Positions 7,625 to 31,103 of a DNA stretch of 64,000 bases are shown piece by piece (position 1 is the first letter of the stretch; each line of letters starts with the position of its first letter). Made by a program: the position numbers and the translations under genes. Origin of the DNA: an uncultured Collinsella sp. (GTDB lineage Bacteria; Actinomycetota; Coriobacteriia; Coriobacteriales; Coriobacteriaceae); assembly GCA_900543505.1 (NCBI GenBank), contig UQSB01000002.1, forward strand, positions 15,663 through 79,662. The letters run 5' to 3'. The notes below the pieces were generated by a model, which saw only the letters and a program-made list of their open reading frames with translations, had not been told where the DNA came from and did no database searches.

Positions 7625-7925
7625 GGTAACACGGTGTCTATTGACTCGCATATTCGCAGGTACATTGCGTAATACGGACGAGCGGTAGGAATTTGGCGGT
7701 AAACGGTCGACCAAAAGAAAAGTTAGATGTTATTTTGACAAGACACTTTCCTGACCTGCGGAAATGCATAATCCCAGCTCAAGAACAGTCTGATAACAAA
7801 AAATTATTATTGAGAATGAGAAAAATCTTTAATACGATATGCAACGAAGGCACAACCTCACCCCCGCACTGCGTCACAATAGAGCGTTAGATGCGAAAAC
7901 AACTACTTCGAGGATTGGTGGTCAA

Positions 7926-9320
7926 ATGGCCCAGGAGACGGTTACGAACGGCACTGAAGCCCTGTTCACTCGCGAAGGCATGCCGCCCGTTAAGGAAATG
8001 ATCCCGTGTGCCCTTCAGCACGTACTGGCATCGTTTGCCGGTATCATCACCCCGGCTGTCATCATGGCCGGCGTCTACGGCTTTAATAGCCAGCAGAGCA
8101 CCGACATCATTCAGGTTGCGCTCATTCTTTCGGCGATCGACACGGCCCTTCAGGCCTTCGCTCCCTTCCGCCGCATCGGCGGCGGCCTGCCCATCGTCAT
8201 GGGCGTCTCGTTCGCGTTCCTGCCGGCCCTGCAGGCCATGGGTGCCTCGGGCTTTAGCTTTGGTGCGCTGCTGGGCGGCGAGATTGTCGGCGGTGCCGTC
8301 GCGGTCCTCTTTGGTCTGGCCTACAGCAAGATTAAGTGGCTGTTCCCGCCCGTCGTGACCGGTACGGTCATCTTCTCCATTGGCGTCTCTCTCTATCCCA
8401 CGGCCGTCAAGTACATGGCCGGCGGTATGGGTACGCCGCTGTGGGGCACTCCGCAGGCCTGGTGCGTCGCTCTTATCACCTTCGCCGTGGTCTTTGCGCT
8501 CGCCAACTTTGGCAAGGGCACGCTCAAGCTGGGATCCGTGTTCTTTGGCATGATCGTTGGCATGATCGTTTCGATCCCCTTTGGCATGATCGACTTCTCC
8601 AGCGTCGCCACCGCTCAGGTCTTCGCCCTTCCCAAGCTCATGCCCTACGCGCTCGAGTTTGACCCCGAGGTCTGCATCACCCTCGCCGTCGTGTTCCCCA
8701 TGGTTGCCATCCAGGTTATCGGCGACGTCTCCGCCGCCTGCCTGGGCTCCATCGACCGTATGCCCACCGAGCGCGAGCTCTCCGGCGCTATCGTGTCCCA
8801 GGGCCTCACCTCTATGGTCGGCGGCCTGCTGGGCGGTCTTCCCACCAGCGCCCTTGGCCAGAACGTGGGCATCATCTGCTCCAACAAGGTCGTCAACAAG
8901 TGGGTCTTTGTGATCATTGCGGCCGTCTTTGCCATCGCCGGTCTGTTCCCGCAGCTCTCTGCCGTCCTTTCCGCTATCCCGCAGCCCGTCATCGGCGGTG
9001 CTACCGTGGGCGTGTTTGGCACCATCACCATGAACGGCGTGCGCATGTTCACCCGCGAGGGCCTCACGCAGCGCACTACCACCATCGTCGGTACCTCCGT
9101 CGTCTTTGGCCTGGGTATCTGGATGGCCAGCGGTTGCCTTGCCGGCGAGGGTATGCCCGCCTGGGTGTCCACCGTCATCGGCTCCAATGCCGTAACCCCC
9201 ACCGCCATCATGGCCATCGTCCTTAACCTGATTCTTCCGCAGACGCCGGTCGTGGCTCAGCACATCGATGCTGCCAAGGACGCTGCCGTGGATCTGGTCT
9301 TGCCCGAGAGCAAGAAGTAG
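7926..9320 (+). CDS. NCS2 family nucleobase permease (xanthine/uric acid permease-like)
   Basis: NCS2 motifs and multiple TM helices; start at MAQET with an upstream GAGG; first gene of the ssnA-ygfK-fdx-xdhD operon. Confidence 0.8.
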   Translation: MAQETVTNGTEALFTREGMPPVKEMIPCALQHVLASFAGIITPAVIMAGVYGFNSQQSTDIIQVALILSAIDTALQAFAPFRRIGGGLPIVMGVSFAFLPALQAMGASGFSFGALLGGEIVGGAVAVLFGLAYSKIKWLFPPVVTGTVIFSIGVSLYPTAVKYMAGGMGTPLWGTPQAWCVALITFAVVFALANFGKGTLKLGSVFFGMIVGMIVSIPFGMIDFSSVATAQVFALPKLMPYALEFDPEVCITLAVVFPMVAIQVIGDVSAACLGSIDRMPTERELSGAIVSQGLTSMVGGLLGGLPTSALGQNVGIICSNKVVNKWVFVIIAAVFAIAGLFPQLSAVLSAIPQPVIGGATVGVFGTITMNGVRMFTREGLTQRTTTIVGTSVVFGLGIWMASGCLAGEGMPAWVSTVIGSNAVTPTAIMAIVLNLILPQTPVVAQHIDAAKDAAVDLVLPESKK

Positions 9321-9515
9321 CCAATTCGGTGCTATTCGTCGGCGGGCGCATCGCCTCGTCCGCCGACGTCATGCGGCGCCAAGCCGCACTTCAAAGGGTT
9401 TGTCCCTTTGGTGAAGCGTTGACGGGAGAGGGCCCGTTTCCGGTGTAGGCCGGCGCTTCGCACTCCGCCATGTCAGAGGTGTCAAACCCCGCCCCTGATG
9501 TTGAAGGGAGCATCC

Positions 9516-10871
9516 ATGCTTCTGGTCGCTAACGGTTCTGTCTTTACCCGCAATGCTCAGACCCCGTTCATTCCAAACGGTGCGGTCGCCATTGACGGAG
9601 ATACGATCGTCGAAGTGGGCCCCGAGTGCGAGCTCAAGGCCAAGTACCCGGATGCCGAGTACGTCGACGCCCGGGGCAACCTCATCATGCCCGGACTCAT
9701 CAACTGCCACACCCACATCTACTCGGGTTTGGCCCGCGGCCTTGCCATTAAGGGCTGTAACCCTACCAACTTCCTGGAGAATCTTGAGCAGCAGTGGTGG
9801 AAGATCGACGACAACCTGACGCTCGACGGCACCAAGGCCAGCGCCTATGCCACGATTCTTGACTCCATCCGCGATGGCGTCACCACGATCTTCGATCACC
9901 ATGCGAGCTTCTGCGAGATTCCGGGAAGCCTCTTTACCATTAAGGATGCCGCTCAGGAGCTGGGCATGCGTTCGTGCCTGTGCTACGAGGTCTCCGATCG
10001 CCGCGGCCAGGAAAAATGCGACCAGGCCATTGCCGAGAACGCCGAGTTTGCCCAGTGGGCCGCCAAGGAGCGTCGCGATAACGACAACCACATGATCGCC
10101 GCCATGTTTGGCGGACATGCCACCTTTACGCTGTCGGACGAGACCATGGATAAGATGGCCGAGGCCAACAACGGCCTGACCGGCTTCCACATCCATGTGT
10201 GCGAGGGCATGAATGACGTGTGGGACTCCCGCCTCAACCGCGGTGGCATCAGCCCCGTCGAGCGCCTGCTGCAGCACAATCTGCTGGGTCCCGACACCAT
10301 GCTCGGCCACTGCATCCACGTGACGCCTGCCGAGATGGATATCGTCAAGGAGTCCGGTACCTGGCTCGTCAACAACCCCGAATCCAATATGGGCAACGCC
10401 GTGGGCTGCGCCCCCGTGCTCGAATTCTTCCGTCGCGGCATCCCCGTGTGCATGGGCACCGATGCCTACACCCACGATATGCTCGAGAGCCTCAAGGTCT
10501 TCCTGATCATCCAGCGCCACAACGCCGCCATGCCCAACGTGGGCTGGTGCGAGGCAATGACGATGCTCTTTGAGAACAACGCCAAGATGGCCAGCAGGTA
10601 CTTCGATCGCAAGCTCGGTGTGCTCGAGGCCGGCGCTGCCGCCGACGTCATCGTCATGGACTACAAGCCCTTTACGCCGCTGAGCGAGGAGAACATCGAC
10701 GGCCACATGCTCTTTGGCATGATGGGCAAAAACTGCCGCACCACCATCATCAACGGCCGCGTCCTGTACAAGGATCGCGAGTTTGTCGGTATTGATGAGG
10801 ACAAGATCAACGCGTGGACCATGGCTGAGTCCAAAAGGCTCTGGAGCACGCTCAACGATCGCGCCTACTAA
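9516..10871 (+). CDS. ssnA: SsnA-type amidohydrolase (chlorohydrolase/aminohydrolase family) of the SDMH/urate cluster
   Basis: HxH metal motif (INCHTHIYSGLARG) and alignment recalled against E. coli SsnA; GAAGGGAG RBS before the ATG at 9516. Confidence 0.75.
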   Translation: MLLVANGSVFTRNAQTPFIPNGAVAIDGDTIVEVGPECELKAKYPDAEYVDARGNLIMPGLINCHTHIYSGLARGLAIKGCNPTNFLENLEQQWWKIDDNLTLDGTKASAYATILDSIRDGVTTIFDHHASFCEIPGSLFTIKDAAQELGMRSCLCYEVSDRRGQEKCDQAIAENAEFAQWAAKERRDNDNHMIAAMFGGHATFTLSDETMDKMAEANNGLTGFHIHVCEGMNDVWDSRLNRGGISPVERLLQHNLLGPDTMLGHCIHVTPAEMDIVKESGTWLVNNPESNMGNAVGCAPVLEFFRRGIPVCMGTDAYTHDMLESLKVFLIIQRHNAAMPNVGWCEAMTMLFENNAKMASRYFDRKLGVLEAGAAADVIVMDYKPFTPLSEENIDGHMLFGMMGKNCRTTIINGRVLYKDREFVGIDEDKINAWTMAESKRLWSTLNDRAY

Positions 10872-11019
10872 TTACAAGTAGATTCACGCGCGTCGGATGT
10901 TTCGCCACATCCGACGCGCGTATGGGCGGCCTCCGCGGGGTCGCCGGCGCTGTGCTAGCGCTACACCGTATTTGCGCCCGCCGCGCGGTCTCGCCGGGCG
11001 TTACAGAGAGGAGCTCATT

Positions 11020-14019
11020 ATGAGCGACATCATGAGGCCGATCCCGTTTTCGCAGCTGATGAACTGGATCATCGAGGAGCACAAGACCCAGGACGCCATC
11101 TTTGGCGTGCGCAAGATGGTCACGACCAACCAGGAGGGTGCGCTTCCCATTTTTGACGAGCGCATCGAGACTCCGTTTGGCCCGGCCGCCGGTCCCAACA
11201 CGCAGCTTGCCCAGAACATCGTGGCCTCTTATGTGGCCGGTTCCCGCTTCTTTGAGCTTAAGACCGTTCAGGTTATGGACGGCGAGGAGCTCTCCAAGTG
11301 CGTCAACAAGCCCTGCATCGTGGCGCAGGACGAGTGCTACAACTGCGAATGGTCGACCGAGCTCGAGGTTCCGCAGGCCTTTGCCGAGTACGTGAAGGCA
11401 TGGTTCGCCTGCCACCTGATCGCTCGCGAGTACGGCTTGGGCAGCCCGGACGGCTTTGTCTTCAACATGTCCGTGGGCTATGACCTGGAGGGCATCAAGA
11501 GCCCCAAGGTCGACGCCTACATCGAGGGCATGAAGGACGCCAGCGGCTCCGACGTCTGGAACGAGTGCCGCACGTGGGCGCTCGCCAACCTGGACAAGTT
11601 TGAGCATGTCGATGCCGCGTTTGTCGAGTCCATCCCGGCGCGCGTCTCCAACTCCATCACTGAGTCCACGCTGCATGGCTGCCCGCCGGCGGAGATCGAG
11701 CGCATCGCGACCTATCTGATCACCGAGAAGGGCCTCAACACCTACATCAAGTGCAACCCCACGCTGCTGGGCTATGAGTTTGCCCGCCAGCGTCTGAACG
11801 AGCTGGGCTTTGACTATATCGTCTTTGATGATACGCACTTCCGCGAGGACCTGCAGTGGGCCGACGCCGTGCCCATGTTCGAGCGCCTGATTGCCCTGTG
11901 CGCCGAGCGCGGCCTGGAGTTTGGCGTCAAGCTGACCAACACGTTCCCCGTCGACGTGACGAGGAACGAGCTGCCTTCCACCGAGATGTACATGTCCGGC
12001 CGTTCGCTGTTCTCACTGACCATCGAGGCCGCCCGCCGCATTACCGAGCAGTTTGACGGCAAGCTGCGCATCAGCTACTCCGGTGGTGCCACGGTCTACA
12101 ACATCCGCGCCCTGTATGATGCCGGTATTTGGCCCGTTACCCTGGCGACCGACGTGCTCAAGCCCGGTGGTTACGAGCGCTTTAGCCAGATGGCCGGCGA
12201 GTTTACCGACCTGGACGGCAAGCCGTTTGAGGGCGTCTCGCTCGAGGCCGTGACCGCGATCCAGACCGACTCGCTCACCAACCCGCTCTACAAGAAGCCG
12301 CTGCGCCCGCTGCCCGACCGCAAGGTCGCCGGCAAGAGCCCGCTTTCCGACTGCTTTACCACGCCGTGCCGCACGAGCTGCCCCATCCAGCAGGATATTC
12401 CCGCCTACCTGGCGGCTGTTGACGAGGGCCGCTACGAGGACGCGCTTAACATCATCATCGAGCGCAACGCCCTGCCGTTCATTACCGGTACCATCTGCCC
12501 GCATCCCTGCGGCCGTGCCTGCGAGCGTGCCTTCTACGAGCCCGAGGGCGCCCAGATTCGCGCCAGCAAGCTCAAGGCCGCCCGCGAGGCCATGACCACC
12601 GTGCTGCCCAAGCTGCGCGCCCAGGACATCGCCAACGACGCCGAGCGCAACGTTGCCGTTATCGGCGGCGGCCCGGCCGGCCTGGCGACGGCGTTCTTCC
12701 TGACGCGTGCCGGCGTGCCCGTTACCATCTTTGAGGCCCGCGATTCGCTCGGCGGTGTAGTCCGTCACGTCATCCCCGAGTTCCGTATCGCCAGCGACGA
12801 TATCTCGCACGACGCTGAGTTCTGCCTGGCCTTTGGCGCCAAGGTGCAGCTCAATGCTCGCGTGGAGTCCATCGACGAGCTCAAGGCCCAGGGCTTTACC
12901 GACGTGGTCGTGGCCACCGGTGCCTGGATGCCCGGCTCTGCGGGCCTGGGCGAGGGCGCCGAGCTCGACGTGCTGGAGTTCCTCGAGGCCGCCAAGAAGG
13001 GCGAGAAGCTCGAGCTGGGCGAGGACGTCGTGATCATTGGCGCCGGCAACACCGCCATGGACGCGGCTCGCGTGGCCAAGCGTCTGGCTGGCGTGAAGAA
13101 CGTGCGCTTGGTGTATCGCCGCACCAAGAAGCAGATGCCCGCTGACGAGGAAGAGCTTGATCTTGCTCTTGCCGACGGTGTTGAGTTCTGCGAGCTGCTG
13201 GCCCCCAAGGCGCTTAACGGCGCCGTGCTGACCTGCGACGTTATGGAGCTTGGCGAGCCGGATGCAAGCGGCCGTCGCAGCCCCGTCGCCACGGGCGAGA
13301 CCGTCGAGCTGCCTGCCACCACGGTGATCTGCGCCGTGGGCGAGGGCATCGATGCCAGCCTGTACGATGCCGCGGGCGTCGAGCACGACCGTCGCGGCCG
13401 CCTTGCCGCCACCTCCACCGGCGTCGAGGGCGTCTGGGCTGCCGGTGACTGCCGTCGCGGTCCGGCCACCGTGGTCGAGGCTATCGCCGACGCCGCCGAG
13501 GTTGCCCGTGCCATCGCCGGTGTGGACTTTAACAAGTACGCCGACCAGAATGCTCAGGCCGGTCGCGAGGACGCCTGCTACGAGCGCAAGGGGTCGCTGT
13601 GCCGCGACAAGCGCAACTGCACCAAGACTCGCTGCCTGGGCTGCGGCTCGGCGTGCGAGGTCTGCTGCGATGTGTGCCCCAACCGCGCCAACGTTGCCAT
13701 TAAAGTGCCGGGCCTGGCCAAGCATCAGGTCGTCCATGTCGATGGCATGTGCAACGAGTGCGGCAACTGCGCCGTGTTCTGCCCCTACCAGGAGGGTCGT
13801 CCCTACAAGGACAAGCTCACCCTGTTCTGGAGCGAGGAGGACATGGAGAACTCCGAGAACGAGGGATTCCTGGCCGTGGACGAGGATCACTTTAAGGTCC
13901 GCGTCGCCGGTACGGTCCGCACCGTCTCGGTCGATGCCGTCAACACCGGCCTTCCCGAGGCCGTCCGCCTGACCATCAGGGCTGTGCGCGACAACTATTC
14001 GTACCTTCTTAAGAAATAG
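11020..14019 (+). CDS. ygfK: YgfK-type large Fe-S/FAD oxidoreductase (historically 'putative selenate reductase subunit YgfK')
   Basis: About 1000 aa; N-terminal DPD-like barrel, central NAD/FAD Rossmann (VAVIGGGPAGLATAF), C-terminal Cys clusters; GAGGAG RBS at 11005. Confidence 0.75.
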   Translation: MSDIMRPIPFSQLMNWIIEEHKTQDAIFGVRKMVTTNQEGALPIFDERIETPFGPAAGPNTQLAQNIVASYVAGSRFFELKTVQVMDGEELSKCVNKPCIVAQDECYNCEWSTELEVPQAFAEYVKAWFACHLIAREYGLGSPDGFVFNMSVGYDLEGIKSPKVDAYIEGMKDASGSDVWNECRTWALANLDKFEHVDAAFVESIPARVSNSITESTLHGCPPAEIERIATYLITEKGLNTYIKCNPTLLGYEFARQRLNELGFDYIVFDDTHFREDLQWADAVPMFERLIALCAERGLEFGVKLTNTFPVDVTRNELPSTEMYMSGRSLFSLTIEAARRITEQFDGKLRISYSGGATVYNIRALYDAGIWPVTLATDVLKPGGYERFSQMAGEFTDLDGKPFEGVSLEAVTAIQTDSLTNPLYKKPLRPLPDRKVAGKSPLSDCFTTPCRTSCPIQQDIPAYLAAVDEGRYEDALNIIIERNALPFITGTICPHPCGRACERAFYEPEGAQIRASKLKAAREAMTTVLPKLRAQDIANDAERNVAVIGGGPAGLATAFFLTRAGVPVTIFEARDSLGGVVRHVIPEFRIASDDISHDAEFCLAFGAKVQLNARVESIDELKAQGFTDVVVATGAWMPGSAGLGEGAELDVLEFLEAAKKGEKLELGEDVVIIGAGNTAMDAARVAKRLAGVKNVRLVYRRTKKQMPADEEELDLALADGVEFCELLAPKALNGAVLTCDVMELGEPDASGRRSPVATGETVELPATTVICAVGEGIDASLYDAAGVEHDRRGRLAATSTGVEGVWAAGDCRRGPATVVEAIADAAEVARAIAGVDFNKYADQNAQAGREDACYERKGSLCRDKRNCTKTRCLGCGSACEVCCDVCPNRANVAIKVPGLAKHQVVHVDGMCNECGNCAVFCPYQEGRPYKDKLTLFWSEEDMENSENEGFLAVDEDHFKVRVAGTVRTVSVDAVNTGLPEAVRLTIRAVRDNYSYLLKK

Positions 14020-14030: not shown

Positions 14031-14510
14031 ATGGCCAAAGCTATTCAACATAACGTGGCCTACGTTGCCTGCGGAAGCGGTTGCGCCTCCGCAGGCGGCG
14101 ACGCCCGCTGCAGCGAAGGCTGCATTGGCTGTGGCGCCTGTGTCACGGCCTGCCCCCACGGCGCCATTGCGCTGGCCGATGGCATCGCCCGCGTGGATCG
14201 CTCCAAGTGCACGGGCTGCGGCCTGTGCGGCATGGCGTGCCCGCAGCGCGTGATTGCCTTTGTTCCCGGCTACCAGAACATCCTGGTGCGCTGCAACAAC
14301 ACCGATAAGGGCGCCATTGCGCGCAAGATCTGCGACACGAGCTGCATCGGTTGCGGCATGTGCGCTAAAAAGTGCCCCGCCGGCGCTATCCGCATCGAGG
14401 ACAACTGCGCCCATATCGACGGCGCGGACTGCCTGTCGTGCGGCATGTGCGCCGTCGTCTGCCCGCATGGCGCCATTCACGACCGCACCGGCATCGCCGC
14501 CGGCGTGTAG
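14031..14510 (+). CDS. Poly-ferredoxin with four 4Fe-4S motifs (RnfB C-terminus-like)
   Basis: Four CxxCxxCxxxCP motifs read from the translation. Confidence 0.8.
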   Translation: MAKAIQHNVAYVACGSGCASAGGDARCSEGCIGCGACVTACPHGAIALADGIARVDRSKCTGCGLCGMACPQRVIAFVPGYQNILVRCNNTDKGAIARKICDTSCIGCGMCAKKCPAGAIRIEDNCAHIDGADCLSCGMCAVVCPHGAIHDRTGIAAGV

Positions 14511-17300: not shown

Positions 17301-17379
17301 GGTAGGGCGCGGACAGTCATTGCTGACGAGCTGTTCGCGCTCAACATCAACTGCATATGCTGCACCTTTGGCCCCAGCT

Positions 17380-17570: not shown

Positions 17571-17582
17571 GATTACGTTATA

Positions 17583-19035: not shown

Positions 19036-19049
19036 CCAAGCGCTCTGAT

Positions 19050-20015: not shown

Positions 20016-20075
20016 CAAAACAGCACTTAGAAGCCGGTGCTGGATGCGGGATCCTGCGGCCGCCTTCAGCCCTCG

Positions 20076-21062: not shown

Positions 21063-21184
21063 TCTGTTCCATCCTTTCGAAATACTAATGACATCGATTA
21101 TATGGAACTTCCCAAGCGGCTCGGTCTTGGATTCGTGCTTTCCAGAACTCGCGCCCAAAAGGGGAGGGCAATCCAGGCGAGTGC

Positions 21185-21838
21185 CTACTTGTCGCCGGCC
21201 GCCGCCTTGGCCTCATTGAGGTAGCTATAGAAGCTGTATTTGGAGATGCCAAAGAACTCACAGGCGCGCTCGCTCGACTTGGAAATGAGGAAGGCGCCGC
21301 GACGGTCGAGGTAGCCAATGGCGCGAATGCGCTCGTCTTTGGTCATAAGGGCCGCGGGCTTGCCCACAAACTGCTCGCACTCGTGCAGCAGGTCCTCGAG
21401 CAGGTCACCGATGTTTTTGGTAATGGGCTCGGGCTCGGTATAGCCCGTGCCGCCGGTGCCGGTAAAGGCGTCGAGCGAACGCTCAAAAGCCTTCATGAGC
21501 GTAATGTCAAAGTTGATGCCCAGAATGCCGACGGGCTTGCCCTCGTCGTTGCGGATAAAGATCGTCGACGATTTGAGCAGCTTACCGTCGGTGGTTTTAG
21601 TGAGGTACGGCTCGCGGTCGTGTACATCGGTGGCGCCCTCGTGCATGGACTCAAACACGATATGGCTGGGACCGTCACCCAGTTTGCGCCCGCTGACGTG
21701 GCCGTTTTCGATCACCACGATGGAGTGGTCCACGTCCTCGGTCTCCAGGTCGTGGACGACGACTTCGCAGTTGGGGCCAAATTGGAGCGCCAGGCCGTGT
21801 GCAAGGCGCTTATAAAACTCAATCTGTGACGGGGTCAT
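21185..21838 (-). CDS. YheO-like PAS-domain plus HTH transcriptional regulator (copy 2), divergent from dpaL
   Basis: Paralog of 6917..7624 (VVHDLETEDVDHSIVVIENGHVSGRKLG); start at MTPSQ. Confidence 0.65.
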   Translation of the reverse strand: MTPSQIEFYKRLAHGLALQFGPNCEVVVHDLETEDVDHSIVVIENGHVSGRKLGDGPSHIVFESMHEGATDVHDREPYLTKTTDGKLLKSSTIFIRNDEGKPVGILGINFDITLMKAFERSLDAFTGTGGTGYTEPEPITKNIGDLLEDLLHECEQFVGKPAALMTKDERIRAIGYLDRRGAFLISKSSERACEFFGISKYSFYSYLNEAKAAAGDK

Positions 21839-21976
21839 GGGTGCCTTCCTAAAAATTAGTTTGGGCTCACTGTGCCATAAACCACACTTGACCGCAAACA
21901 AATCCATCAACAAGGCAATTCATGACCGTTCGGGGGCGAAAAAGTACCGATTACGGCAACAAACAATTCGTTAGGT

Positions 21977-22115: not shown

Positions 22116-23330
22116 ATGGCCGATAAGATCCAGTGGGCGGGCAACACGATGCCCAAGAGCGATGACAAGCACTTGGGAATCATGAGTCTCGACCACGTGA
22201 AGAAGGCCCGTGCCTTCCACCAGTCGTTCCCTCAATATACCGTCACCCCGCTTGCCCGCCTGGACGGTCAGGCTGCGCGCCTGGGTCTGTCCAACCTGTG
22301 CGTTAAGGACGAGAGCTATCGCTTTGGCCTCAACGCCTTTAAGGTTCTGGGCGGCTCGTTTGCCATGGCCAACTACATTGCCGACGAGACCGGCAAGGAC
22401 GTTGCCGACTGCACCTTCGATTACCTGACCTCCGACCAGCTTGCCGAGGACTTTGGCCAGGCTACCTTCTTTACCGCTACCGACGGCAACCATGGTCGCG
22501 GCGTGGCATGGGCTGCCAACAAGCTGGGCCAGAAGGCTGTCGTGCACATGCCCAAGGGTTCCACCAAGCCCCGCTTCGATAACATTGCCGCCGAGGGCGC
22601 CACGGTGACCATCGAAGAGGTCAACTACGACGAGTGCGTGCGCATGGCCGCCGCCGAGGCCGATGCCTGCGAGCGCGGCGTCATCGTTCAGGACACCGCC
22701 TGGGAGGGCTACGAGAAGATCCCGTCCTGGATCATGGAGGGCTACGGCACCATGGCTTCCGAGGCTGCCGAGCAGCTGCGCGAGATGGCCATCAACCGCC
22801 CGACGCACGTGTTTGTCCAGGCTGGCGTGGGTTCGCTCGCCGGCGCCGTGGTGGGCTACTTCACCAACCTGTATCCCGATAACCCGCCCACCTTCGTCGT
22901 GGTCGAGTGCGCGCCTGCCGCCTGCCTGTACAAGGGCGCTGCCGCCGGCGACGGCGACCCGCGCATCGTGGACGGCGACATGCCCTCCATCATGGCCGGC
23001 CTGTGCTGCGGCGAGCCCAACATCTTGGGCTGGGATATCCTGCGCAACCACACCACCGCCTTCGTGTCCTGCCCCGACTGGGTCACCGCTCGCGGAATGC
23101 GCACCCTGGGCGCTCCCGAGAAGGGCGACCCGCGCGTCATCTCCGGCGAGTCCGGCGCTGTGACCACCGGCCTGGTCGAGACTCTCATGCTCGATCCCGA
23201 GTACGCCGAGCTCAAGGAACTCATCGGCCTGGACAAGACGAGCTCCGTGCTCTGCTTCTCCACGGAAGGTGACACGGACCCCGACCAGTATCGTCGAATT
23301 GTTTGGGAAGGCGAATATCCCACTTGCTAA
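22116..23330 (+). CDS. dpaL: Diaminopropionate ammonia-lyase (PLP-dependent, YgeX/DpaL)
   Basis: PLP fold-type II motifs (KDESYRFGLNAFKVLGG); AAGGAG RBS; position within the ygeW/ygeX/ygeY set. Confidence 0.8.
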   Translation: MADKIQWAGNTMPKSDDKHLGIMSLDHVKKARAFHQSFPQYTVTPLARLDGQAARLGLSNLCVKDESYRFGLNAFKVLGGSFAMANYIADETGKDVADCTFDYLTSDQLAEDFGQATFFTATDGNHGRGVAWAANKLGQKAVVHMPKGSTKPRFDNIAAEGATVTIEEVNYDECVRMAAAEADACERGVIVQDTAWEGYEKIPSWIMEGYGTMASEAAEQLREMAINRPTHVFVQAGVGSLAGAVVGYFTNLYPDNPPTFVVVECAPAACLYKGAAAGDGDPRIVDGDMPSIMAGLCCGEPNILGWDILRNHTTAFVSCPDWVTARGMRTLGAPEKGDPRVISGESGAVTTGLVETLMLDPEYAELKELIGLDKTSSVLCFSTEGDTDPDQYRRIVWEGEYPTC

Positions 23331-23404: not shown

Positions 23405-24790
23405 ATGGCTAAAGAACTCGATTACGACGCTATTAAGGCTGCGGCTGAGTCCCATCGTGCTGATATGACGCGTTTTCTTCGCGCAATGATTAGCCACCCC
23501 TCTGAGTCTTGCGAGGAGGGTGAGGTTGTCGCTTGCATCAAGGCCGAGATGGAGAGCCTTGGCTATGACGAGGTCAAGGTCGACGGCCTGGGCAACGTTA
23601 TGGGCTTTATGGGCGAGGGCGACAAGATCATCGCCATCGACTCCCACATCGACACCGTCGGTATCGGCAACATCGAGAACTGGGATGCCGATCCCTATGA
23701 GGGCTACGAAACCGACGAGATCATCTACGGCCGCGGCGGCTCCGACCAGGAGGGCGGCATGGCTTCTGCTACCTATGCTGCCAAGATGATGAAGGACATG
23801 GGCCTCATCCCCGAGGGCTACAAGATCATGGTCGTCGGCACCGTCCAGGAAGAGGACTGCGACGGCATGTGCTGGCAGTACATCTACAACAAGGACGGCA
23901 TTAAGCCCGAGTTCGTCATTTCCACTGAGCCCACCGACGGCGGCATCTATCGCGGTCACCGCGGCCGCATGGAGATCCGCGTCGACGTTCACGGCACCTC
24001 CTGCCACGGTTCCGCTCCCGACCGCGGCGACAACGCCATCTACAAGATGGCCGACATCATCGCCGACGTCCGCGCCCTCAACAACAACGGCTGCGACGAG
24101 TCGACCGACATCAAGGGCCTCGTCAAGATGCTCGACCCCAAGTACAACCCCGAGCACTTTGAGGACGCCCGCTTCCTGGGCCGCGGCACCTGCACCGTCA
24201 GCCAGATCTTCTACACCAGCCCCAGCCGCTGCGCTGTCGCTGACTCCTGCGCCATCTCCATCGACCGTCGCATGACCGCCGGCGAGACCTGGGAGTCCTG
24301 CCTGGACGAGATCCGCAACCTGCCGGCCGCCAAGAAGTACGGCGACGACGTGAAGGTCTCCATGTACATGTACGACCGTCCGTCCTGGACCGGCGAGGTC
24401 TACGAGACCGAGGCTTACTTCCCCACGTGGATCAACAAGGAGACCGCTCCGCACGTCAAGGCCCTCGTCGACGCCCACAAGGCCATGTTCGGTGACGAGC
24501 GCATCGGCTGCGAGCCCAGCATGGACAAGCGCACCGGCCGTCCGCTGTGCGACAAGTGGACCTTCTCCACGAACTGCGTTTCCATCCAGGGCCGCTATGG
24601 CATCCCCTGCGTTGGCTTTGGCCCGGGTGCCGAGTCTCAGGCTCACGCTCCCAACGAGGTCACCTACAAGGACGACCTGGTCACCGCTGCCGCCATGTAT
24701 GTTGCTGCTTTGAACCTCTACGATCCGAGCCAGGCCGATGGCGACGCTACCGTGTTCCGCGCTGGTCTGACCAACAACAAGATCGACTAG
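23405..24790 (+). CDS. ygeY: YgeY-family M20 peptidase/hydrolase linked to the SDMH system
   Basis: M20 metal-binding motifs ([13 protein letters not shown]...); adjacent to ygeW and dpaL as in E. coli. Confidence 0.75.
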
Positions 24791-24991: not shown

Positions 24992-26194
24992 ATGGACGCC
25001 AAGTTTACCGAGCTCGTCGAGCAGCTGAACGGCCTCGATTTTAAGGGCATGTACGGCAGCGACTTCCTGCACACCTGGGATAAGACCACCGATGAGCTCA
25101 AGGCTCTCTACATCGTTGCCGACGCCCTGCGCGAGCTGCGTGAGAACAACGTTTCGTCCAAGATCTTCGACTCGGGCCTGGCCGTCTCCCTGTTCCGCGA
25201 CAACTCCACCCGTACGCGCTTCTCCTTCTCTAAGGCCGCCAACCTGCTCGGCCTCGAGCTGCAGGACCTGGACGAGAAGAAGTCCCAGATCGCTCACGGC
25301 GAGACCGTCCGCGAGACCGCTACCATGATCTCCTTCATGGCCGACGTCATCGGCATCCGCGACGACATGTACATCGGCAAGGGCGACGCCTACATGGCCG
25401 AGGTCTCCGAGTCTGTCCAGCAGGCCTACGAGGACGGCGTTCTGGATCACCGTCCCACGCTCATCTCCCTGCAGTCCGACTCCGATCACCCCACGCAGTC
25501 CTCTGCCGACATGCTCTACCTCATCAACGAGTTTGGCGGTCTTGAGAACCTCAAGGGCAAGAAGGTTGCCGTCACCTGGGCCTATTCGCCCTCTTACGGC
25601 AAGCCGCTGTCCTGCCCGCAGTCGCTGATCAGCCTGCTGCCCCGCTTTGGCATGGACGTCACCCTGGCCCACCCCGAGGGCTACGACCTCATGCCCGAGG
25701 TCGTCGAGCGCGCCAAGGGCTATGCCGCCGAGTCCGGCACCACCTTTAAGCAGGTCAACACCATGGCCGAGGCCTTCGAGGGCGCCGACATCGTGATCCC
25801 CAAGAGCTGGGCTCCGTTTGCCGCCATGGAGAAGCGCACCAACCTGTACGCCGAGGGCGACGACGCCGGCATCGCCGCGCTCGAGAAGGAGCTGCTCGCC
25901 CAGAACGCCACCCATCAGGACTGGTGCTCCACGACCGAGCTCATGGAGAAGACTGCCAACGGTCAGGACACCATCTTTATGCACCCGCTGCCTGCCGACA
26001 TCTCCGGTGTCTCCTGCGAGCACGGCGAGGTCAACGCCGACGTCTTCGACATGCACCGCGTGGGCATGTACAAGGAGGCCAGCTACAAGCCGTACGCTAT
26101 CGCAGCCATGATGTTCCTGCAGAAGGTTGCCGATCCCGCCGCTACCCTCAAGGCCCTCGACGAGCGCAACACCGCCCGTTGGTTCCAGGCCTAA
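24992..26194 (+). CDS. ygeW: YgeW-type knotted carbamoyltransferase
   Basis: Transcarbamylase STRTR motif (NSTRTRFSF) and HPLP motif (FMHPLP); about 400 aa like YgeW; start at MDAKF with a GGAAAGGA RBS. Confidence 0.8.
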   Translation: MDAKFTELVEQLNGLDFKGMYGSDFLHTWDKTTDELKALYIVADALRELRENNVSSKIFDSGLAVSLFRDNSTRTRFSFSKAANLLGLELQDLDEKKSQIAHGETVRETATMISFMADVIGIRDDMYIGKGDAYMAEVSESVQQAYEDGVLDHRPTLISLQSDSDHPTQSSADMLYLINEFGGLENLKGKKVAVTWAYSPSYGKPLSCPQSLISLLPRFGMDVTLAHPEGYDLMPEVVERAKGYAAESGTTFKQVNTMAEAFEGADIVIPKSWAPFAAMEKRTNLYAEGDDAGIAALEKELLAQNATHQDWCSTTELMEKTANGQDTIFMHPLPADISGVSCEHGEVNADVFDMHRVGMYKEASYKPYAIAAMMFLQKVADPAATLKALDERNTARWFQA

Positions 26195-26344: not shown

Positions 26345-26959
26345 ATGAAACTTGGTTGCGTGATTATGGCTTCGGGCGAGGGCAAGCGGTTTGGCTCTAA
26401 CAAGATGCTTGCCGATATCTATGGCGAGCCGCTGATTGCCCGGACCATCGATTCGGTTCCCCGGGGCTTTGACGTTGTGGTTTCGACGCGTTGGCCCGAG
26501 GTCGCCCAGATTTGCGAGGACAAGCATTGCCCGTATGTGCTGCACGATGGCAAGCTCAGGAGCGAAAGCGTCCGTGCGGGCCTTTCGTGGGGGGTCGATC
26601 GCAACTGGAAAGGCTGCCTCTTTTTGCCGGGCGACCAGCCGCTCGTGAGTTCGGATTCTTTTGAGGCTATGGTTCGTGCATTTGACGAGCGTGGCCGCAA
26701 GCATCCGGTGCGTCTTGCGTGCAACGGTGAGCCTTCGAGCCCGGTGCTCTTTCCGGCGGAACTGTTCGATGCACTTATGTGTCTTGAGGGTAAGGACGGC
26801 GGCGGTTCGATCCTCAAGGACCGTACCGACGTGGTGCTGGTCGAGGCGCGTGCCTACGAGCTGTGGGACGTCGATACCGTCAAGGGACAGCGACGCATAA
26901 CGGAGCATATCGCCGCCTGCTCGTATTTTGATCGCGTGGCCAACTGCATCAATCAATAA
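26345..26959 (+). CDS. mocA: MobA-like NTP transferase, molybdenum cofactor cytidylyltransferase (MocA/YgfJ-like)
   Basis: N-terminal GxxxRxG motif (LGCVIMASGEGKRFG), LPGDQP motif. Confidence 0.7.
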   Translation: MKLGCVIMASGEGKRFGSNKMLADIYGEPLIARTIDSVPRGFDVVVSTRWPEVAQICEDKHCPYVLHDGKLRSESVRAGLSWGVDRNWKGCLFLPGDQPLVSSDSFEAMVRAFDERGRKHPVRLACNGEPSSPVLFPAELFDALMCLEGKDGGGSILKDRTDVVLVEARAYELWDVDTVKGQRRITEHIAACSYFDRVANCINQ

Positions 26960-26968: not shown

Positions 26969-28336
26969 ATGATCATCATCAAAAACGGCGCACTCGTGAC
27001 GCCCCAGGGGCTTCGCCGCGCCGATCTTGCCATGGATGGCGATAAGATCGTGCGGATTGCCGCGGCGATTGAGCCGGCCGAGGGCGATACCGTCGAGGAT
27101 GCTGCGGGCTGCTGGGTGTTCCCGGGCTTTATCGATGGGCACACGCACATGCAGTGCTGGACCGGCATGGATTGGACAGCCGATAGCTTTGAGACCGGCA
27201 CGCGCGCGGCTGCCTGCGGCGGCACGACGACCATTGTGGACTACGCGACGGCCGATCGCGGCGTGACCATGCCCGATGCCTTGGTCGAGTGGCGTCATCG
27301 CGCCGACGGCACCTGCACCGCCAACTATGCCTTCCATATGGCGCTTGCCGAGTGGAATGAGCGCAACCGCGCCGATCTTTCGGCCATGCGCGAGGCGGGC
27401 GTGTCGTCGTTTAAGACCTACTTTGCCTACGACCATCTGCGCCTGGACGATGCCGAGACGCTCGAGGTGCTGGAGGAGCTCAAGCGCGTGGGCGGTATCC
27501 TGTGCGTGCATTGCGAGAACGGCACGTTGGTCAACGCGCTGCAGAAGCGCGTGTTTGAGCAGGGTATCCACGGGCCCGAGGGCCATGCGCTCAGCCGTCC
27601 GGACGTGTGTGAGGCCGAGGCCGTGAGCCGCCTGCTGTATCTGGCGCACTTGGCCGGGGACGCTCCGGTCAACGTGGTGCACCTTTCGACCAAGCTGGGG
27701 CTCGAGGCCATTCGCGCTGCCAAAGCGCGCGGGCAGAAGAACATCTATGTCGAGACATGCCCTCAGTATCTGATGCTCGACGACACCTGCTATCTGGAGC
27801 AGGGCGAGGACGGCTTTGCGGGCGCCAAGTACGTGATGAGCCCGCCGCTGCGCCATGCCGGTGACCGTGCCGCGCTGCGCGAGGCGCTTGTGGCTGGCGA
27901 GATCGATACTATTGCCACCGACCACTGCAGCTTTAATCTGCACGGGCAAAAGGACCGAGGACGCGATGATTTCCGCGCGATTCCCAACGGCGGGCCCGGC
28001 GTGGAGCATCGTCCCGTTGCGATTGCCACGAGCTTTGAGGGACAGCTGGGTCCCGAGGATCTGTGCCGCTTGATGAGCGAGAACCCGGCGCGCGTTTTTG
28101 GCATGTATCCGCGCAAGGGCTGTCTTGCCGAGGGCGCCGATGCCGACGTGTGCGTGTGGGATCCGTGCGCGCGTTGGACGATCAGCGCCGCGACGCAGCA
28201 TCAGGCCGTGGACTACACGCCGCTCGAGGGCTTTGGGGCACATGGCCGCGCCAAGGCCGTGTTTGTGAACGGCGTGCTGGCGGCACGCGACGGCGAGCCC
28301 ACCGGAGCCCAACCCGGCCGCTACGTGCCCCGCTAA
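26969..28336 (+). CDS. hyuA: Cyclic amidohydrolase of the D-hydantoinase/dihydropyrimidinase family (HyuA-like)
   Basis: GFIDGHTHM metal motif, about 455 aa, amidohydrolase fold motifs. Confidence 0.75.
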   Translation: MIIIKNGALVTPQGLRRADLAMDGDKIVRIAAAIEPAEGDTVEDAAGCWVFPGFIDGHTHMQCWTGMDWTADSFETGTRAAACGGTTTIVDYATADRGVTMPDALVEWRHRADGTCTANYAFHMALAEWNERNRADLSAMREAGVSSFKTYFAYDHLRLDDAETLEVLEELKRVGGILCVHCENGTLVNALQKRVFEQGIHGPEGHALSRPDVCEAEAVSRLLYLAHLAGDAPVNVVHLSTKLGLEAIRAAKARGQKNIYVETCPQYLMLDDTCYLEQGEDGFAGAKYVMSPPLRHAGDRAALREALVAGEIDTIATDHCSFNLHGQKDRGRDDFRAIPNGGPGVEHRPVAIATSFEGQLGPEDLCRLMSENPARVFGMYPRKGCLAEGADADVCVWDPCARWTISAATQHQAVDYTPLEGFGAHGRAKAVFVNGVLAARDGEPTGAQPGRYVPR

Positions 28337-28415
28337 CAGGAAGACCGCCGGGGTAGCTAATTTGGGAGATGATTTTTCGGGACGGGGTAGCAAAAAGAGC
28401 CCCGTCCCAAATTTG

Positions 28416-29153
28416 CTACCCCTGGAGGCTGGTGGCGATGAGGGGGCGGTTGAGGGCTGCCTCGAAGCGATCTGCCATTGTTGGGTCGGCAAGCGTGTCG
28501 GCTTGGTTGAGCATGACGCGTGCGGTGCTGAGTCCCAGCGCCTGCATCTCGGCATTGAGCACCTGGGCGACGCGCTCGGGCGTGGCGATGTCGGTAGGCT
28601 CGCAGCCGCAGCGCTCGCAGAAGAGCTCGGGGCGGTGGACAACCTCGGCGACGGGCCTGCCCAGCCCCGAGGCGCCGACGACCCAGACAACGTTTGCCGT
28701 GGCGGCGGGAATTACCGGCTCCCAGGCGGCATGCGCCTTGAGCGGGAGTCGCTTGCTGCCATCTGCCTCGGCCAACACATAGTCAAAGCGCTGCGCCAGC
28801 TGGTCGATCGGCTCAGCGGGGGCGGAGAGCTTGCCTGTCTCCGGGTCCAAAACACCCGCCTGGCAGATGCTTCCGCGGACAAGTTCCGCGCATGCCTCGC
28901 AGGTGCAGCCGGGAACATGCGGGGTCCCCGGCTTCCAAGGCGCGGCGTCCAGGCGACGGCTCGACCCGTCCCATGGCACGCCGGCGACGGGAAACATGTG
29001 CGTGGTGGTGCAGAGGAGCACGCGCCCGCCGCCGCGCATGAGCTCGAGACCCAGCATCTTCAGCAACGTCGACTTGCCGCCGCTGCCGATAATCGCGGTA
29101 ATGCCCGGCTCGATCTTGAGCGCGGAGGCAAGGTTTCCGCTCGTCGTTTCCAT
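28416..29153 (-). CDS. yqeC: YqeC-family SDMH accessory protein
   Basis: N-terminal P-loop-like (ITAIIGSGGKSTLL), about 245 aa; resembles the YqeC family as recalled. Confidence 0.65.
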   Translation of the reverse strand: METTSGNLASALKIEPGITAIIGSGGKSTLLKMLGLELMRGGGRVLLCTTTHMFPVAGVPWDGSSRRLDAAPWKPGTPHVPGCTCEACAELVRGSICQAGVLDPETGKLSAPAEPIDQLAQRFDYVLAEADGSKRLPLKAHAAWEPVIPAATANVVWVVGASGLGRPVAEVVHRPELFCERCGCEPTDIATPERVAQVLNAEMQALGLSTARVMLNQADTLADPTMADRFEAALNRPLIATSLQG

Positions 29154-29255
29154 CTGTTCACCGCCGTATAATACTGTGATAATAAATAATCATCAGAGTA
29201 GCGGCCGAACCGCTTTTGCTCTGCTCAAACCGTAGCACAGGGAGGTGCCCCGGGA

Positions 29256-30050
29256 ATGCTCGTTTATGTTCGCGGCGCCGGCGATATCGCCACGGGCGTC
29301 GCCGCTCGCTTGGTGCGCGCCGGCGTTTCGGTCGTTATGGCCGATATCGCGGTTCCCACGTGCATCCGCCGCACAATCTGTTTTTGCGAGGCCATTCGCC
29401 TGGGCGAGGTCGAGGTCGAAGGCATTCGCGCTCGCTTGGCACGGACGCCGGCTGAGGCGCTTGAGATTACCGAGGCTGGAGACGTCGCCGTTGTGGTGGA
29501 CCCTCAGGCCAAGATGCTCGATGAGCTTAAACCCGCGGCTGTGGTCGACGCGATTTTGGCTAAGCGCAACTTGGGCACCACGCGCGACATGGCGCCTGCC
29601 GTCATCGCTGTGGGGCCGGGCTTTACCGCGCCGGTTGACTGCGACGCCGTGGTCGAGACCATGCGCGGACATTTTCTCGGCCGTGTCATTACCCAAGGTT
29701 CGCCCCAGCCCAACACGGGCGTGCCGGGCATTATCGCCGGCTATGGCAAGGAACGTGTTATCCACAGCCCCGCCGCCGGCGTGTTTAGGTCCGACCGCAC
29801 CATCGGCGACATCGTGAGTGCCGGCGATGTGATCGGGTATGCGGGTGATACTCCCATGGTCACGCAGATTGACGGCTGCTTGCGCGGGCTTTTGGCGAAC
29901 GGCGTGCAGGTGACTGAGGGCTTTAAATGCGCCGATGTCGATCCGCGCGGCGATGCCAGCTATATCAACTACATTTCGGACAAGGCGACGTCGGTCGGCG
30001 GCGGTGTGCTCGAGGCGCTCGCTATGCTCACCGGTGTCTTTAGAGGATAG
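29256..30050 (+). CDS. yqeB: YqeB-family SDMH maturation protein (stand-alone, not fused to an XdhC-like domain)
   Basis: Family resemblance from recall; immediately followed by an XdhC-family gene. Confidence 0.6.
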   Translation: MLVYVRGAGDIATGVAARLVRAGVSVVMADIAVPTCIRRTICFCEAIRLGEVEVEGIRARLARTPAEALEITEAGDVAVVVDPQAKMLDELKPAAVVDAILAKRNLGTTRDMAPAVIAVGPGFTAPVDCDAVVETMRGHFLGRVITQGSPQPNTGVPGIIAGYGKERVIHSPAAGVFRSDRTIGDIVSAGDVIGYAGDTPMVTQIDGCLRGLLANGVQVTEGFKCADVDPRGDASYINYISDKATSVGGGVLEALAMLTGVFRG

Positions 30051-30059
30051 AAGGCGGCA

Positions 30060-31103
30060 ATGGAAAAGCTCGATGTTGTGAATGCGGCGCTTGCCGCCTT
30101 GCGTGCTGGTGAGACGTGCGAACTGGTGGTAGTGGCCGGCACGGCAGGGTCGTCACCGCGCGGCGTGGGCGCCTGGATGGCCGTCTTTGCCGATGGCAGC
30201 CAGGCGGGCACTATCGGCGGTGGCAAGATTGAACTCTTTGCGCTGGATGAGGCGCGCGAGCTCCTGAGCGCGGGACAGTCGCGTCTGGTCCGCTACACTA
30301 TGGGCGGCGAGAACTCCGATACCGGCATGATCTGCGGCGGAGCCATCTGCTTGTGCTACCTGCATCTGGATGCGACCCAGGTACCGTTGTTCCAGGAAAT
30401 TGCCGACGTCTTGGCCTATCGGCGCATCGGCGACTTCGTCATCGACTTTGAGCCGTTTGTCGCGAGCGCGCTCGAGGGCGATGTGGCCGAGTACCATGGC
30501 GAGGAATCGCGCCGTACCATTGCGGGCTGCCCCGGGCTTTCGCTGGTGGAGGAGGGGAGTAAGGTCAGCTACACCAACGCGGCCTCCGAGATTCCCGTGG
30601 CGCACGTCGAGACGCTCTGCCCCGAGGGCCTGACTTATATCTTTGGCTGCGGCCACGTGGGCGCTGCGACGGCGCGGGTGCTCACGGCGGCGGGTTTTGC
30701 CGTCGTGGCCTGCGACGACCGCCCCGGCACGCTGACCCCCGAATGGGTGCCCGGTGTCTACGACCGTCGTCTGGTCGACTACAAGAACCTGAGCGAGCAG
30801 TGCCCAATCGGCCCGCGCGACCTGGTGGTCGTTGCCACAGCAGGCCACAAGTCCGATATCGACGTGGTGATTCAGGCCATGCGCGCCAAACCCGCCTATC
30901 TGGGCTGTCTGGGTTCGCGCCGCAAGACGGCCTTTGTGCGCGCCCGCCTGGAGCAGGAGGGCTTTACGCAGGACCAGATCGACGGGCTGCACCTGCCGAT
31001 CGGCGTTGCCATCGAGGCCGAGGATCCCGAGGAGATTGCCATCTCCATCGCTGCCGAGATGATCCACCTGCGCCGCACCAAGCTCGTCCCCCGCAAGCGC
31101 TAG
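30060..31103 (+). CDS. xdhC: XdhC/CoxI-family molybdenum-cofactor insertion accessory protein
   Basis: N-terminal XdhC_CoxI domain plus C-terminal Rossmann-like domain (YIFGCGHVGAA). Confidence 0.75.
   Translation: MEKLDVVNAALAALRAGETCELVVVAGTAGSSPRGVGAWMAVFADGSQAGTIGGGKIELFALDEARELLSAGQSRLVRYTMGGENSDTGMICGGAICLCYLHLDATQVPLFQEIADVLAYRRIGDFVIDFEPFVASALEGDVAEYHGEESRRTIAGCPGLSLVEEGSKVSYTNAASEIPVAHVETLCPEGLTYIFGCGHVGAATARVLTAAGFAVVACDDRPGTLTPEWVPGVYDRRLVDYKNLSEQCPIGPRDLVVVATAGHKSDIDVVIQAMRAKPAYLGCLGSRRKTAFVRARLEQEGFTQDQIDGLHLPIGVAIEAEDPEEIAISIAAEMIHLRRTKLVPRKR

Follow-up and report, generated by a model that had tools for sequence, protein, structure and literature searches.

Which catabolic function is encoded by a cluster of selenium- and molybdenum-related genes in the gut actinobacterium Collinsella, and which protein delivers electrons to its molybdenum (Mo) enzyme? 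The cluster lies in a 64,000-nucleotide (64-kb) stretch of an uncultured Collinsella sp. (contig UQSB01000002.1 of assembly GCA_900543505.1, positions 15,663 to 79,662), and this whole stretch is referred to as the window. We concluded with high confidence that it is the uric-acid catabolic locus of C. aerofaciens, or of a very close relative, and that its genes specify the '2,8-dioxopurine' pathway, which is reductive and anaerobic. This reading of the locus is correct but is already described in C. aerofaciens with transcriptomic and phenotypic evidence, and the chemistry has been solved since. As these facts were established in 2022–2025 in this very species, no new system is added here. 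The only new leads are the association of a polyferredoxin with DOPDH (2,8-dioxopurine dehydrogenase) and the recurrent YheO-like regulators, both of which are absent from the discussion in the cited papers. The word 'ferredoxin' does not occur in the main texts of bioRxiv 10.1101/2022.07.24.501321 and bioRxiv 10.1101/2025.04.24.650524, nor does 'regulator' occur in that of the former. The cluster is the means of uric-acid removal in an actinobacterium that is among the commonest of the human gut, and it bears on gout and hyperuricaemia.

The gene identities in the locus are established by sequence. The original prediction had described, from 7625 to 31103, a complete island for selenium-dependent molybdenum hydroxylases (SDMH) and anaerobic purine–urate catabolism. 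From the open reading frame (ORF) listing and the NCBIfam and Pfam scans, we observed that the genes it named are all present at the place and in the order given. Family hidden Markov models (HMMs) assigned the proteins to specific subfamilies and not to generic ones, in agreement with the SDMH and urate reading. The check that had been set for its refutation, namely that the Mo enzyme would score as a generic aldehyde oxidoreductase and YgeW as an ordinary carbamoyltransferase, was run and did not refute it. The Mo enzyme scored 1133 bits on TIGR03311 compared to 400 on the aldehyde oxidoreductase model (cut-off 1100), and YgeW scored 728 bits on TIGR03316 compared to 115 on the ordinary OTCase model. 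The cut-offs were far exceeded by SsnA, YgfK, the Mo enzyme, DpaL, YgeY, YgeW, HyuA, YqeB and YqeC, and the likeness is not due to chance.

The features that are expected of a cluster of this pathway were also found. The ssnA and ygfK genes are adjacent (25 bp apart), and a DOPDH (XdhAC/XdhD-type) gene is recognized from TIGR03311, its family name and a diagnostic Ser residue (see below). All four downstream enzymes, HyuA, YgeW, YgeY and YgeX/DpaL, score above their equivalog cut-offs, and the two markers of the selenium-cofactor trait, YqeB and YqeC, match TIGR03309 and TIGR03172, respectively. For an in-cluster carbamate kinase (YqeA), no tblastn match was obtained in the 64 kb. Carbamate kinase is encoded within the cluster in 33 of 39 strains, and is a frequent rather than a strictly defining member (bioRxiv 10.1101/2025.04.24.650524).

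The original prediction had 'connected' the genes to urate breakdown. That link is right, but the wording is too loose, as the pathway was reconstituted with one enzyme after another (Li et al., PMC12507026; Liu et al., bioRxiv 10.1101/2025.04.24.650524). In these studies, urate is converted to 2,8-dioxopurine by an enzyme of the xanthine dehydrogenase (XDH) family, which is XdhD-YgfM with NADH in Escherichia coli and the selenium-dependent XdhAC without a flavin adenine dinucleotide (FAD) domain (DOPDH) in Clostridium sporogenes. YgfK reduces 2,8-dioxopurine with NADPH. SsnA opens the ring of the reduced 2,8-dioxopurine (PMC12507026), and the other ring is opened by HyuA to form 2,3-diureidopropionate. 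YgeW cleaves a ureido group by phosphorolysis to give carbamoyl phosphate, from which carbamate kinase makes ATP, and YgeX/DpaL yields pyruvate and ammonia (PMC12507026; bioRxiv 10.1101/2025.04.24.650524). The order in which YgeW and YgeY remove the ureido groups differs between the two reports.

In the Collinsella locus, the proposed sequence of events would be as follows. The NCS2 permease would import urate, and the selenium- and Mo-dependent, FAD-less DOPDH would strip the C6 oxygen to give 2,8-dioxopurine, which YgfK (NADPH:2,8-dioxopurine oxidoreductase, DOPOR) would reduce with NADPH. SsnA would open the first ring, and opening of the second by HyuA would leave 2,3-diureidopropionate. 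YgeW would remove one ureido group by phosphorolysis, and the carbamoyl phosphate formed would be used for ATP synthesis by a carbamate kinase whose gene lies elsewhere in the genome; YgeY would hydrolyse the other ureido group. DpaL would then convert 2,3-diaminopropionate to pyruvate and ammonia, with RidA probably quenching the reactive enamine. The MocA-like and XdhC-like proteins, YqeB and YqeC would mature the selenium-containing Mo cofactor.

The identity of the Mo enzyme (14523–17300, plus strand; 925 aa) is central to this scheme. It is of the XdhAC type (TIGR03311, 1133 bits against a cut-off of 830), in which a part with two [2Fe-2S] clusters is fused to the molybdopterin-binding domain and the FAD domain is absent. 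The name xdhD given to it in the original prediction is a mislabel, as the protein scores only 226 bits on the XdhD/YgfN family model of E. coli (TIGR03313; cut-off 1102) and shares only 27% identity with XdhD and 29% with XdhA of E. coli. At 98% identity, it matches a 20,356-sequence cluster named by NCBI 'selenium-dependent xanthine dehydrogenase [Collinsella aerofaciens]'. For a 98%-identical protein, JGI uses the name 'Se_dep_Molyb_1: selenium-dependent molybdenum hydroxylase 1', the second part of which is the old name of TIGR03311. The same annotation, 'selenium-dependent molybdenum hydroxylase 1', is borne by CLOSPO_02131, the characterized DOPDH (Liu et al., bioRxiv 10.1101/2022.07.24.501321). 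In an explicit alignment of a shorter fragment, S678/G679 of the Mo enzyme lie opposite A1078/A1079 of bovine xanthine oxidase, and the published signature of DOPDH is a change of bovine A1078 to Thr or Ser (bioRxiv 10.1101/2025.04.24.650524). The Mo domain is closest to that of the selenium-dependent nicotinate dehydrogenase (NDH) 3HRD (E = 6e-65); Liu et al. likewise found DOPDH to be nearest to the selenium-dependent NDH (bioRxiv 10.1101/2025.04.24.650524).

The genomic context was surveyed by a genome scan with one genome per species, in which the best 80 of at least 600 loci were covered and C. sporogenes falls outside those 80. XdhAC-type genes with 40–99% identity to the enzyme of the window were observed beside ssnA and ygfK in many genomes. 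Where a canonical XDH with an FAD subunit occurs too, it is a separate gene with 25–29% identity. The evidence thus favours DOPDH, over the NCBIfam name of xanthine dehydrogenase, as the predicted function of this protein.

Several points weigh against this reading of the locus and of its Mo enzyme. The functions of the enzymes are transferred from E. coli orthologues to which they are 32–61% identical. The permease, the MocA-like and the XdhC-like proteins fall below the specific NCBIfam cut-offs, and are assigned by superfamily and context. The published criterion for DOPDH is at least 46% identity to the C. sporogenes XdhAC over 80% or more of the length, and the assignment made here comes from the family model, the name, the signature and the context. 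In the column of bovine F1009, the alignment is ambiguous between G609 and V610 of the Mo enzyme. Neither selD nor a carbamate kinase gene is present in the 64-kb window. The selenium need of the C. sporogenes DOPDH was shown with a selD mutant, no sequence signature for it being known, and SelD was present in every cluster-bearing strain of the library of Liu et al. (bioRxiv 10.1101/2025.04.24.650524). The word 'complete' in the original prediction was too strong, since the window contains neither of these two genes, selD and that of carbamate kinase. Its list of absences stood: the tblastn searches with E. coli YgfM, XdhB, YqeA and YgeV gave no match, and the lack of YgeV, of carbamate kinase and of an FAD subunit (YgfM/XdhB), whether adjacent to the Mo enzyme gene or elsewhere, therefore holds for the whole window.

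From where, then, might a DOPDH that has no FAD subunit receive its electrons? DOPDH uses neither NADH nor NADPH, and its physiological donor was called unknown (bioRxiv 10.1101/2025.04.24.650524). For the C. difficile enzyme, ferredoxin was suggested as the donor by Li et al. (PMC12507026). In the window, the gene of a 159-aa polyferredoxin resembling the C-terminal part of RnfB (14031–14510, plus strand; four Pfam Fer4 domains) lies 11 bp from ygfK and 12 bp from the Mo enzyme gene. The [4Fe-4S] ferredoxin placed between these two genes in the original prediction is thus present as described. The protein has four CxxCxxCxxxCP [4Fe-4S] motifs and about five other conserved Cys residues.

This protein is not an RnfB. 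Membership of that family was judged by an N-terminal membrane anchor and the PF04060 Fe-S domain ahead of the polyferredoxin part. The polyferredoxin is without this N-terminal part and matches only positions 124–267 of the 293-position model (120 bits against 437). The true RnfB homologues in the match list are 263–278 aa long and carry PF04060. E. coli YgfS was considered as an orthologue and rejected, as the similarity is 27–41% over 39–100 residues and the context differs.

The homologues of the polyferredoxin outside Coriobacteriia point to the Mo enzyme as its partner. All six that were sampled (47–54% identity) are encoded 0–60 bp from an XdhAC-type gene, and the products of these neighbouring genes are 858–861 aa long and without an FAD domain. 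Four of the six lie within ssnA-ygfK-xdhAC-fdx operons. In three contigs that represent two of the six homologues (L008, L009 and L105), the ferredoxin gene is beside the XdhAC-type gene and the 2.8–8 kb of flank that were read hold no ygfK. It is thus the Mo enzyme gene that is the constant neighbour. The ferredoxin gene is found on either side of the XdhAC-type gene, and in two phyla.

Two observations weigh against a general partnership. In the genome scan, an adjacent polyferredoxin was present in 7 of 25 XdhAC-type loci (three of Collinsella and one each of Olsenella, Mediterraneibacter, a Clostridiales metagenome-assembled genome and Blautia), and 18 were without one. In C. sporogenes, the gap of ∼3 kb between ygfK and xdhAC has room for two genes, and the polyferredoxin is apparently lacking (bioRxiv 10.1101/2022.07.24.501321). 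The ferredoxin is therefore not a universal partner. A possible third kind of electron input was seen in Oscillibacter sp. UBA6647 (L032, 10001–13890), where an XdhAC-type gene (43%) is directly preceded by a match to an XdhB/YgfM-like FAD domain, the two forming one long match. This suggests a variant in which the enzyme and an FAD module are either fused or closely coupled. Judged from these gene neighbourhoods, the electron-input module of the enzyme is evidently exchangeable, and may be an FAD subunit, a dedicated polyferredoxin, or none encoded nearby.

It is reasonable, but unproven, that the polyferredoxin feeds DOPDH in place of the FAD subunit YgfM of E. coli. The nearness of its gene to both neighbours (11–12 bp) means that it may also wire the NADPH-oxidizing YgfK to DOPDH; if this is true, the whole four-electron reduction of urate would be driven by NADPH. 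The broader proposal is that the polyferredoxin of ∼155 aa found beside XdhAC-type genes is the dedicated physiological donor of FAD-less DOPDH, even wiring YgfK to it, and that the YheO-like proteins are purine-responsive Gram-positive regulators that replace YgeV. We hold it tentatively, and would give it slightly less than an even chance.

The alternative that survives best is that the polyferredoxin is not the donor of the Mo enzyme, and serves YgfK or is a general low-potential carrier that travels with the operon. The position of its gene between ygfK and the Mo enzyme gene at nearly equal distances fits this view, as do the Fe-S domains of YgfK itself, which have local similarity to the polyferredoxin, and the majority of XdhAC-type loci that lack an adjacent ferredoxin. 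However, in L008, L009 and L105 the ferredoxin stays with the XdhAC-type gene where no ygfK was found in the flank. Moreover, purified YgfK needs NADPH alone, and it is DOPDH that uses neither nicotinamide cofactor. We consider this alternative unlikely, and the proposal that the polyferredoxin donates electrons to DOPDH is preferred. By comparative context, the candidate redox partner of DOPDH is narrowed to one specific family of polyferredoxins, and the YheO-like proteins emerge as candidate regulators. Knowledge of the donor would help in equipping a probiotic chassis with the pathway in its FAD-less, NAD(P)H-independent form.

The second lead concerns regulation. Two YheO-like regulators had been predicted, and both were found on the minus strand with PAS_6 and HTH_22 domains. 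Regulator 1 (6917–7714; 119 and 65 bits, respectively) is divergent from the permease operon, and regulator 2 (21185–21913; 127 and 56 bits) is divergent from dpaL; gene callers place the start of the latter in sister contigs at the position equal to 21838. The two proteins are 29% identical to each other. The start of the locus at 7625 in the original prediction is misplaced, as it falls within the gene of regulator 1. Homologues of regulator 2 (43–53% identity) adjoin ssnA, ygfK or ygeY in Firmicutes loci. YheO-like homologues are divergent beside these genes in several Firmicutes loci and recur across phyla. In Lacrimispora, the 'YheO domain protein' Closa_1034, which is encoded between dpaL and ssnA, was up-regulated 22-fold with uric acid (bioRxiv 10.1101/2022.07.24.501321). 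The indexed literature contained no paper with both 'YheO' and 'uric acid'. We infer that the two YheO-like proteins regulate the two operons. In the Rfam scan, neither operon was preceded by a purine or Moco riboswitch.

Beside regulator 2 is a 360-aa ORF (20076–21158, minus strand) with a long Pro/Ala/Thr-rich low-complexity stretch, one C-terminal hydrophobic segment and no family match. At this position, a gene of 322–328 aa is called beside the YheO regulator in sister contigs; it is a possible member of the regulon. Just outside the start at 7625 is the gene of RidA, an enamine/imine deaminase (6417–6794, plus strand; Pfam Ribonuc_L-PSP, 139 bits; first in-frame Met at 6417). A ridA gene is also found within cluster L029 of Vagococcus and adjacent to clusters L012 and L014 of Collinsella. 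RidA is probably peripheral to the pathway.

The first operon, all on the plus strand, runs from the permease to the Mo enzyme. Its gaps of 177, 25, 11 and 12 bp make it tightly packed, as had been claimed. The NCS2-family nucleobase permease (7839–9320) passes just the broad NF037981 model (65 bits against 40), scores 340 bits on TIGR03173 (pbuX), below the cut-off of 414, and is 26–28% identical to E. coli UacT and XanQ; it is presumed to be a urate or purine importer. The SsnA amidohydrolase (9498–10871) was assigned by two models, NF005540 (633 bits against 444) and TIGR03314 (556 against 455). YgfK (10897–14019) scored 1287 bits on TIGR03315 (cut-off 835), and the substrate of YgfK is 2,8-dioxopurine, not xanthine (bioRxiv 10.1101/2025.04.24.650524).

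The second block begins with dpaL (ygeX; 22116–23330, plus strand), encoding a 2,3-diaminopropionate ammonia-lyase that forms pyruvate and ammonia (TIGR03528, 611 bits against 532). It is followed on the same strand by ygeY (23405–24790), for the M20 hydrolase that cleaves a ureido group (NF009555, 621 against 321), and by ygeW (about 24992–26194, with the start taken from gene calls in sister contigs), for the knotted carbamoyltransferase (TIGR03316, cut-off 500). The gene of a MocA-like nucleotidyltransferase comes next (about 26345–26959, plus strand; Pfam NTP_transf_3). This protein scores 101 bits on TIGR03310, below the cut-off of 186, and E. coli MocA gave no tblastn match in the window at 1e-3. 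It is probably a Mo-cofactor cytidylyltransferase, judging from its superfamily and context, and its membership of the MocA family is unproven. HyuA, a D-hydantoinase/dihydropyrimidinase (26969–28336, plus strand), matches TIGR02033 (502 bits against 393).

Three maturation genes close the block. The selenium-cofactor trait marker YqeC is present (28416–29153; TIGR03172, 151 bits against 73; Pfam YqeC, 113 bits) as predicted, with one correction: the gene lies on the minus strand, where it is also called in all sister contigs. The plus-strand ORF at 28362–29171 was rejected as yqeC, having no Pfam or NCBIfam match. The YqeB core (29256–30050, plus strand; TIGR03309, 347 bits against 220), for selenium-dependent maturation of the Mo cofactor, and an XdhC/CoxI-family chaperone for insertion of this cofactor (30060–31103, plus strand; Pfam XdhC_CoxI, 68 bits, and XdhC_C, 123 bits) together correspond to the single fused YqeB of E. 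coli (541 aa; compared at L007, 16615–18240). The former aligns with residues 270–526 of that protein and the latter with residues 22–253, its N-terminal half. The two adjacent Collinsella genes are thus in reversed order, with yqeB preceding the xdhC-like gene.

Between the two operons is a spacer of ∼3.9 kb (17301–21184) that is outside the pathway. It holds an ATPase_2/DUF234 gene, degenerate ORFs, a match to the S-adenosylmethionine (SAM) riboswitch and the Pro/Ala-rich ORF described above. The ATPase_2/DUF234 gene (17644–19035, plus strand) is replaced by an RNase_T-like gene in other strains; the sister contigs compared were L001, L002, L004 and L006. The SAM riboswitch match (RF00162; 19721–19811, minus strand) scored 45.1 bits against a gathering score of 44.4. 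Downstream of it there is no convincing minus-strand ORF and the region looks degenerate; sister contigs call here a 140-aa gene without a Pfam match. Other ORFs considered and rejected for want of a family match were those at 6815–7672 and 20037–20888 on the plus strand (shadow ORFs of a high-GC genome, or degenerate) and those at 19324–19875, 20066–20938 and 31209–32012 on the minus strand (shadow ORFs or degenerate sequence).

The word 'island' implied a mobile element, and this was not borne out. The locus ends 320 bp (31104–31424) before rplE. All ten contigs with an identical ribosomal protein L5 (L092–L101) have xdhC upstream of rplE, either directly or with one permease in between; the extra Xan_ur_permease occurs in three of them (458 aa in L096 and L099, and split into 299 and 145 aa in L101). 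In this lineage, the locus is thus a fixed part of the chromosome and not a wandering island. That it was acquired horizontally as a mobile element could be argued from the patchy use of uric acid in Collinsella, C. stercoris being a non-consumer (bioRxiv 10.1101/2022.07.24.501321), from an IS110 transposase between hyuA and yqeC in one strain (L006) and the strain-variable inter-operon spacer, and from an integrase fragment at 56020–56715. This is nevertheless improbable, as the G+C content shows no compositional break at the locus (54–66%, compared to ∼60% across the window), there is no tRNA, no integrase flanks it, and the context upstream of rplE is the same in all ten contigs. The Olsenella and Parolsenella orthologues are 77–80% identical, the pattern expected of vertical descent in Coriobacteriia. 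An identical YqeB occurs in 637 blocks of the collection; the six contigs listed are all from metagenome assemblies, one of which is labelled human gut.

A few further features of the window were observed. The rplE gene heads the series rpsN-rpsH-rplF-rplR-rpsE-rpmD-rplO-secY-adk-map-infA-rpmJ-rpsM-rpsK-rpsD-rpoA. No rplN or rplX was found upstream of it, and the spc operon therefore appears to be split in this lineage; the ORF at 31216–31455 was considered for ribosomal protein L24, and no L24 was found. An L31-Coriobacteria leader (RF03128; 62730–62765, plus strand; 35.1 bits against a gathering score of 33) fits the taxonomic assignment. The integrase-like ORF (231 aa, minus strand) matches the C-terminal part only of a phage-integrase model and may be a truncated integrase; it is followed by a 653-aa ORF without a family match (57637–59598). 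Two large genes are U32-family peptidase-like (3623–6118, minus strand, 831 aa; 46419–48422, plus strand, 667 aa).

Slightly less probable than a mobile island is that the Mo enzyme is a selenium-dependent xanthine dehydrogenase, which would make urate from hypoxanthine and xanthine or, following the classical clostridial scheme, reduce urate to xanthine. This is what the TIGR03311 equivalog name says, as does the product name that NCBI gives to the 98%-identical protein. The window also shows no other, canonical XDH, yet an adenine deaminase is encoded at 50006–51826, and catabolism of adenine would call for an enzyme that acts on hypoxanthine and xanthine. Against this, CLOSPO_02131, the sole characterized bearer of the family name, selectively interconverts urate and 2,8-dioxopurine, its mutant accumulates urate while xanthine is handled by a separate XDH, the next enzyme YgfK does not take xanthine, and the Ser opposite bovine A1078 fits the DOPDH signature. 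The adenine deaminase (Adenine_deam_C and Amidohydro_1 domains, plus strand) lies ∼19 kb from the cluster and could feed adenine into purine catabolism.

With DOPDH as the favoured assignment, the locus can be compared with the known systems. The closest is that of C. aerofaciens ATCC 25986, one of the three organisms used to discover the cluster, which consumed all the uric acid offered and in which five core genes of the cluster, ygeX, ygeY and ygeW as well as ygfK and ssnA, were induced by uric acid (bioRxiv 10.1101/2022.07.24.501321). In this strain, and also in 4_8_47FAA, carbamate kinase is encoded elsewhere on the chromosome (bioRxiv 10.1101/2025.04.24.650524), which is exactly the 'difference from E. 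coli' listed in the original prediction. No substantive difference was observed between the window and ATCC 25986; the window may come from a different strain, with the inter-operon spacer varying.

The C. sporogenes cluster, from another phylum, has the same type of Mo enzyme with the same family name (2Fe-2S and Mo cofactor, no FAD), the same seven catabolic enzymes, the YqeB and YqeC markers and a carbamate kinase outside the cluster. Collinsella differs in carrying a polyferredoxin gene between ygfK and that of the Mo enzyme, the corresponding C. sporogenes gap, from ygfK to xdhAC, holding only ∼3 kb. The Collinsella Mo enzyme is about 65 aa longer than the C. sporogenes XdhAC (925 compared to 856 aa), and Collinsella has, in addition, two YheO-like regulators.

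Orthologues of the E. coli ygeV–ygfT region are YgfK (43% identity, over the full length), SsnA (32%), YgeW (61%), YgeX/DpaL (48%), YgeY (59%), HyuA (38%), the YqeB core (56%) and YqeC (35%). There are four differences, which concern the reductase family, the module for electron input, the type of regulator and the split YqeB. E. coli uses XdhD (TIGR03313) with the FAD subunit YgfM and NADH, whereas the enzyme of the window belongs to TIGR03311 and has no FAD partner. The E. coli cluster holds the sigma-54 activator YgeV and the carbamate kinase YqeA, and the window neither. In E. coli YqeB, an XdhC-like half is joined to the YqeB half, and these are two genes in the window. The E. coli polyferredoxin YgfS, encoded beside YgfT, is only weakly similar to that of the window.

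The C. difficile system resembles the window in its XdhD/XdhAC-type enzyme without an FAD subunit, for which its authors proposed reduced ferredoxin (PMC12507026). There, however, the PydA-like UacX replaces YgfK, and the hydrolase UacY replaces YgeW and carbamate kinase, whereas the window keeps YgfK and YgeW. Among the single enzymes, the nicotinate dehydrogenase of Eubacterium barkeri (3HRD) has the nearest Mo domain, but is a multi-subunit protein that includes an FAD subunit and acts on another substrate. The aldehyde oxidoreductase of Desulfovibrio gigas (1VLB/1SIJ) shares the FAD-less single-chain architecture of two [2Fe-2S] clusters and Mo, and also acts on another substrate. Among these systems, the locus of the window represents the XdhAC/YgfK/YgeW variant, in which carbamate kinase is encoded remotely.

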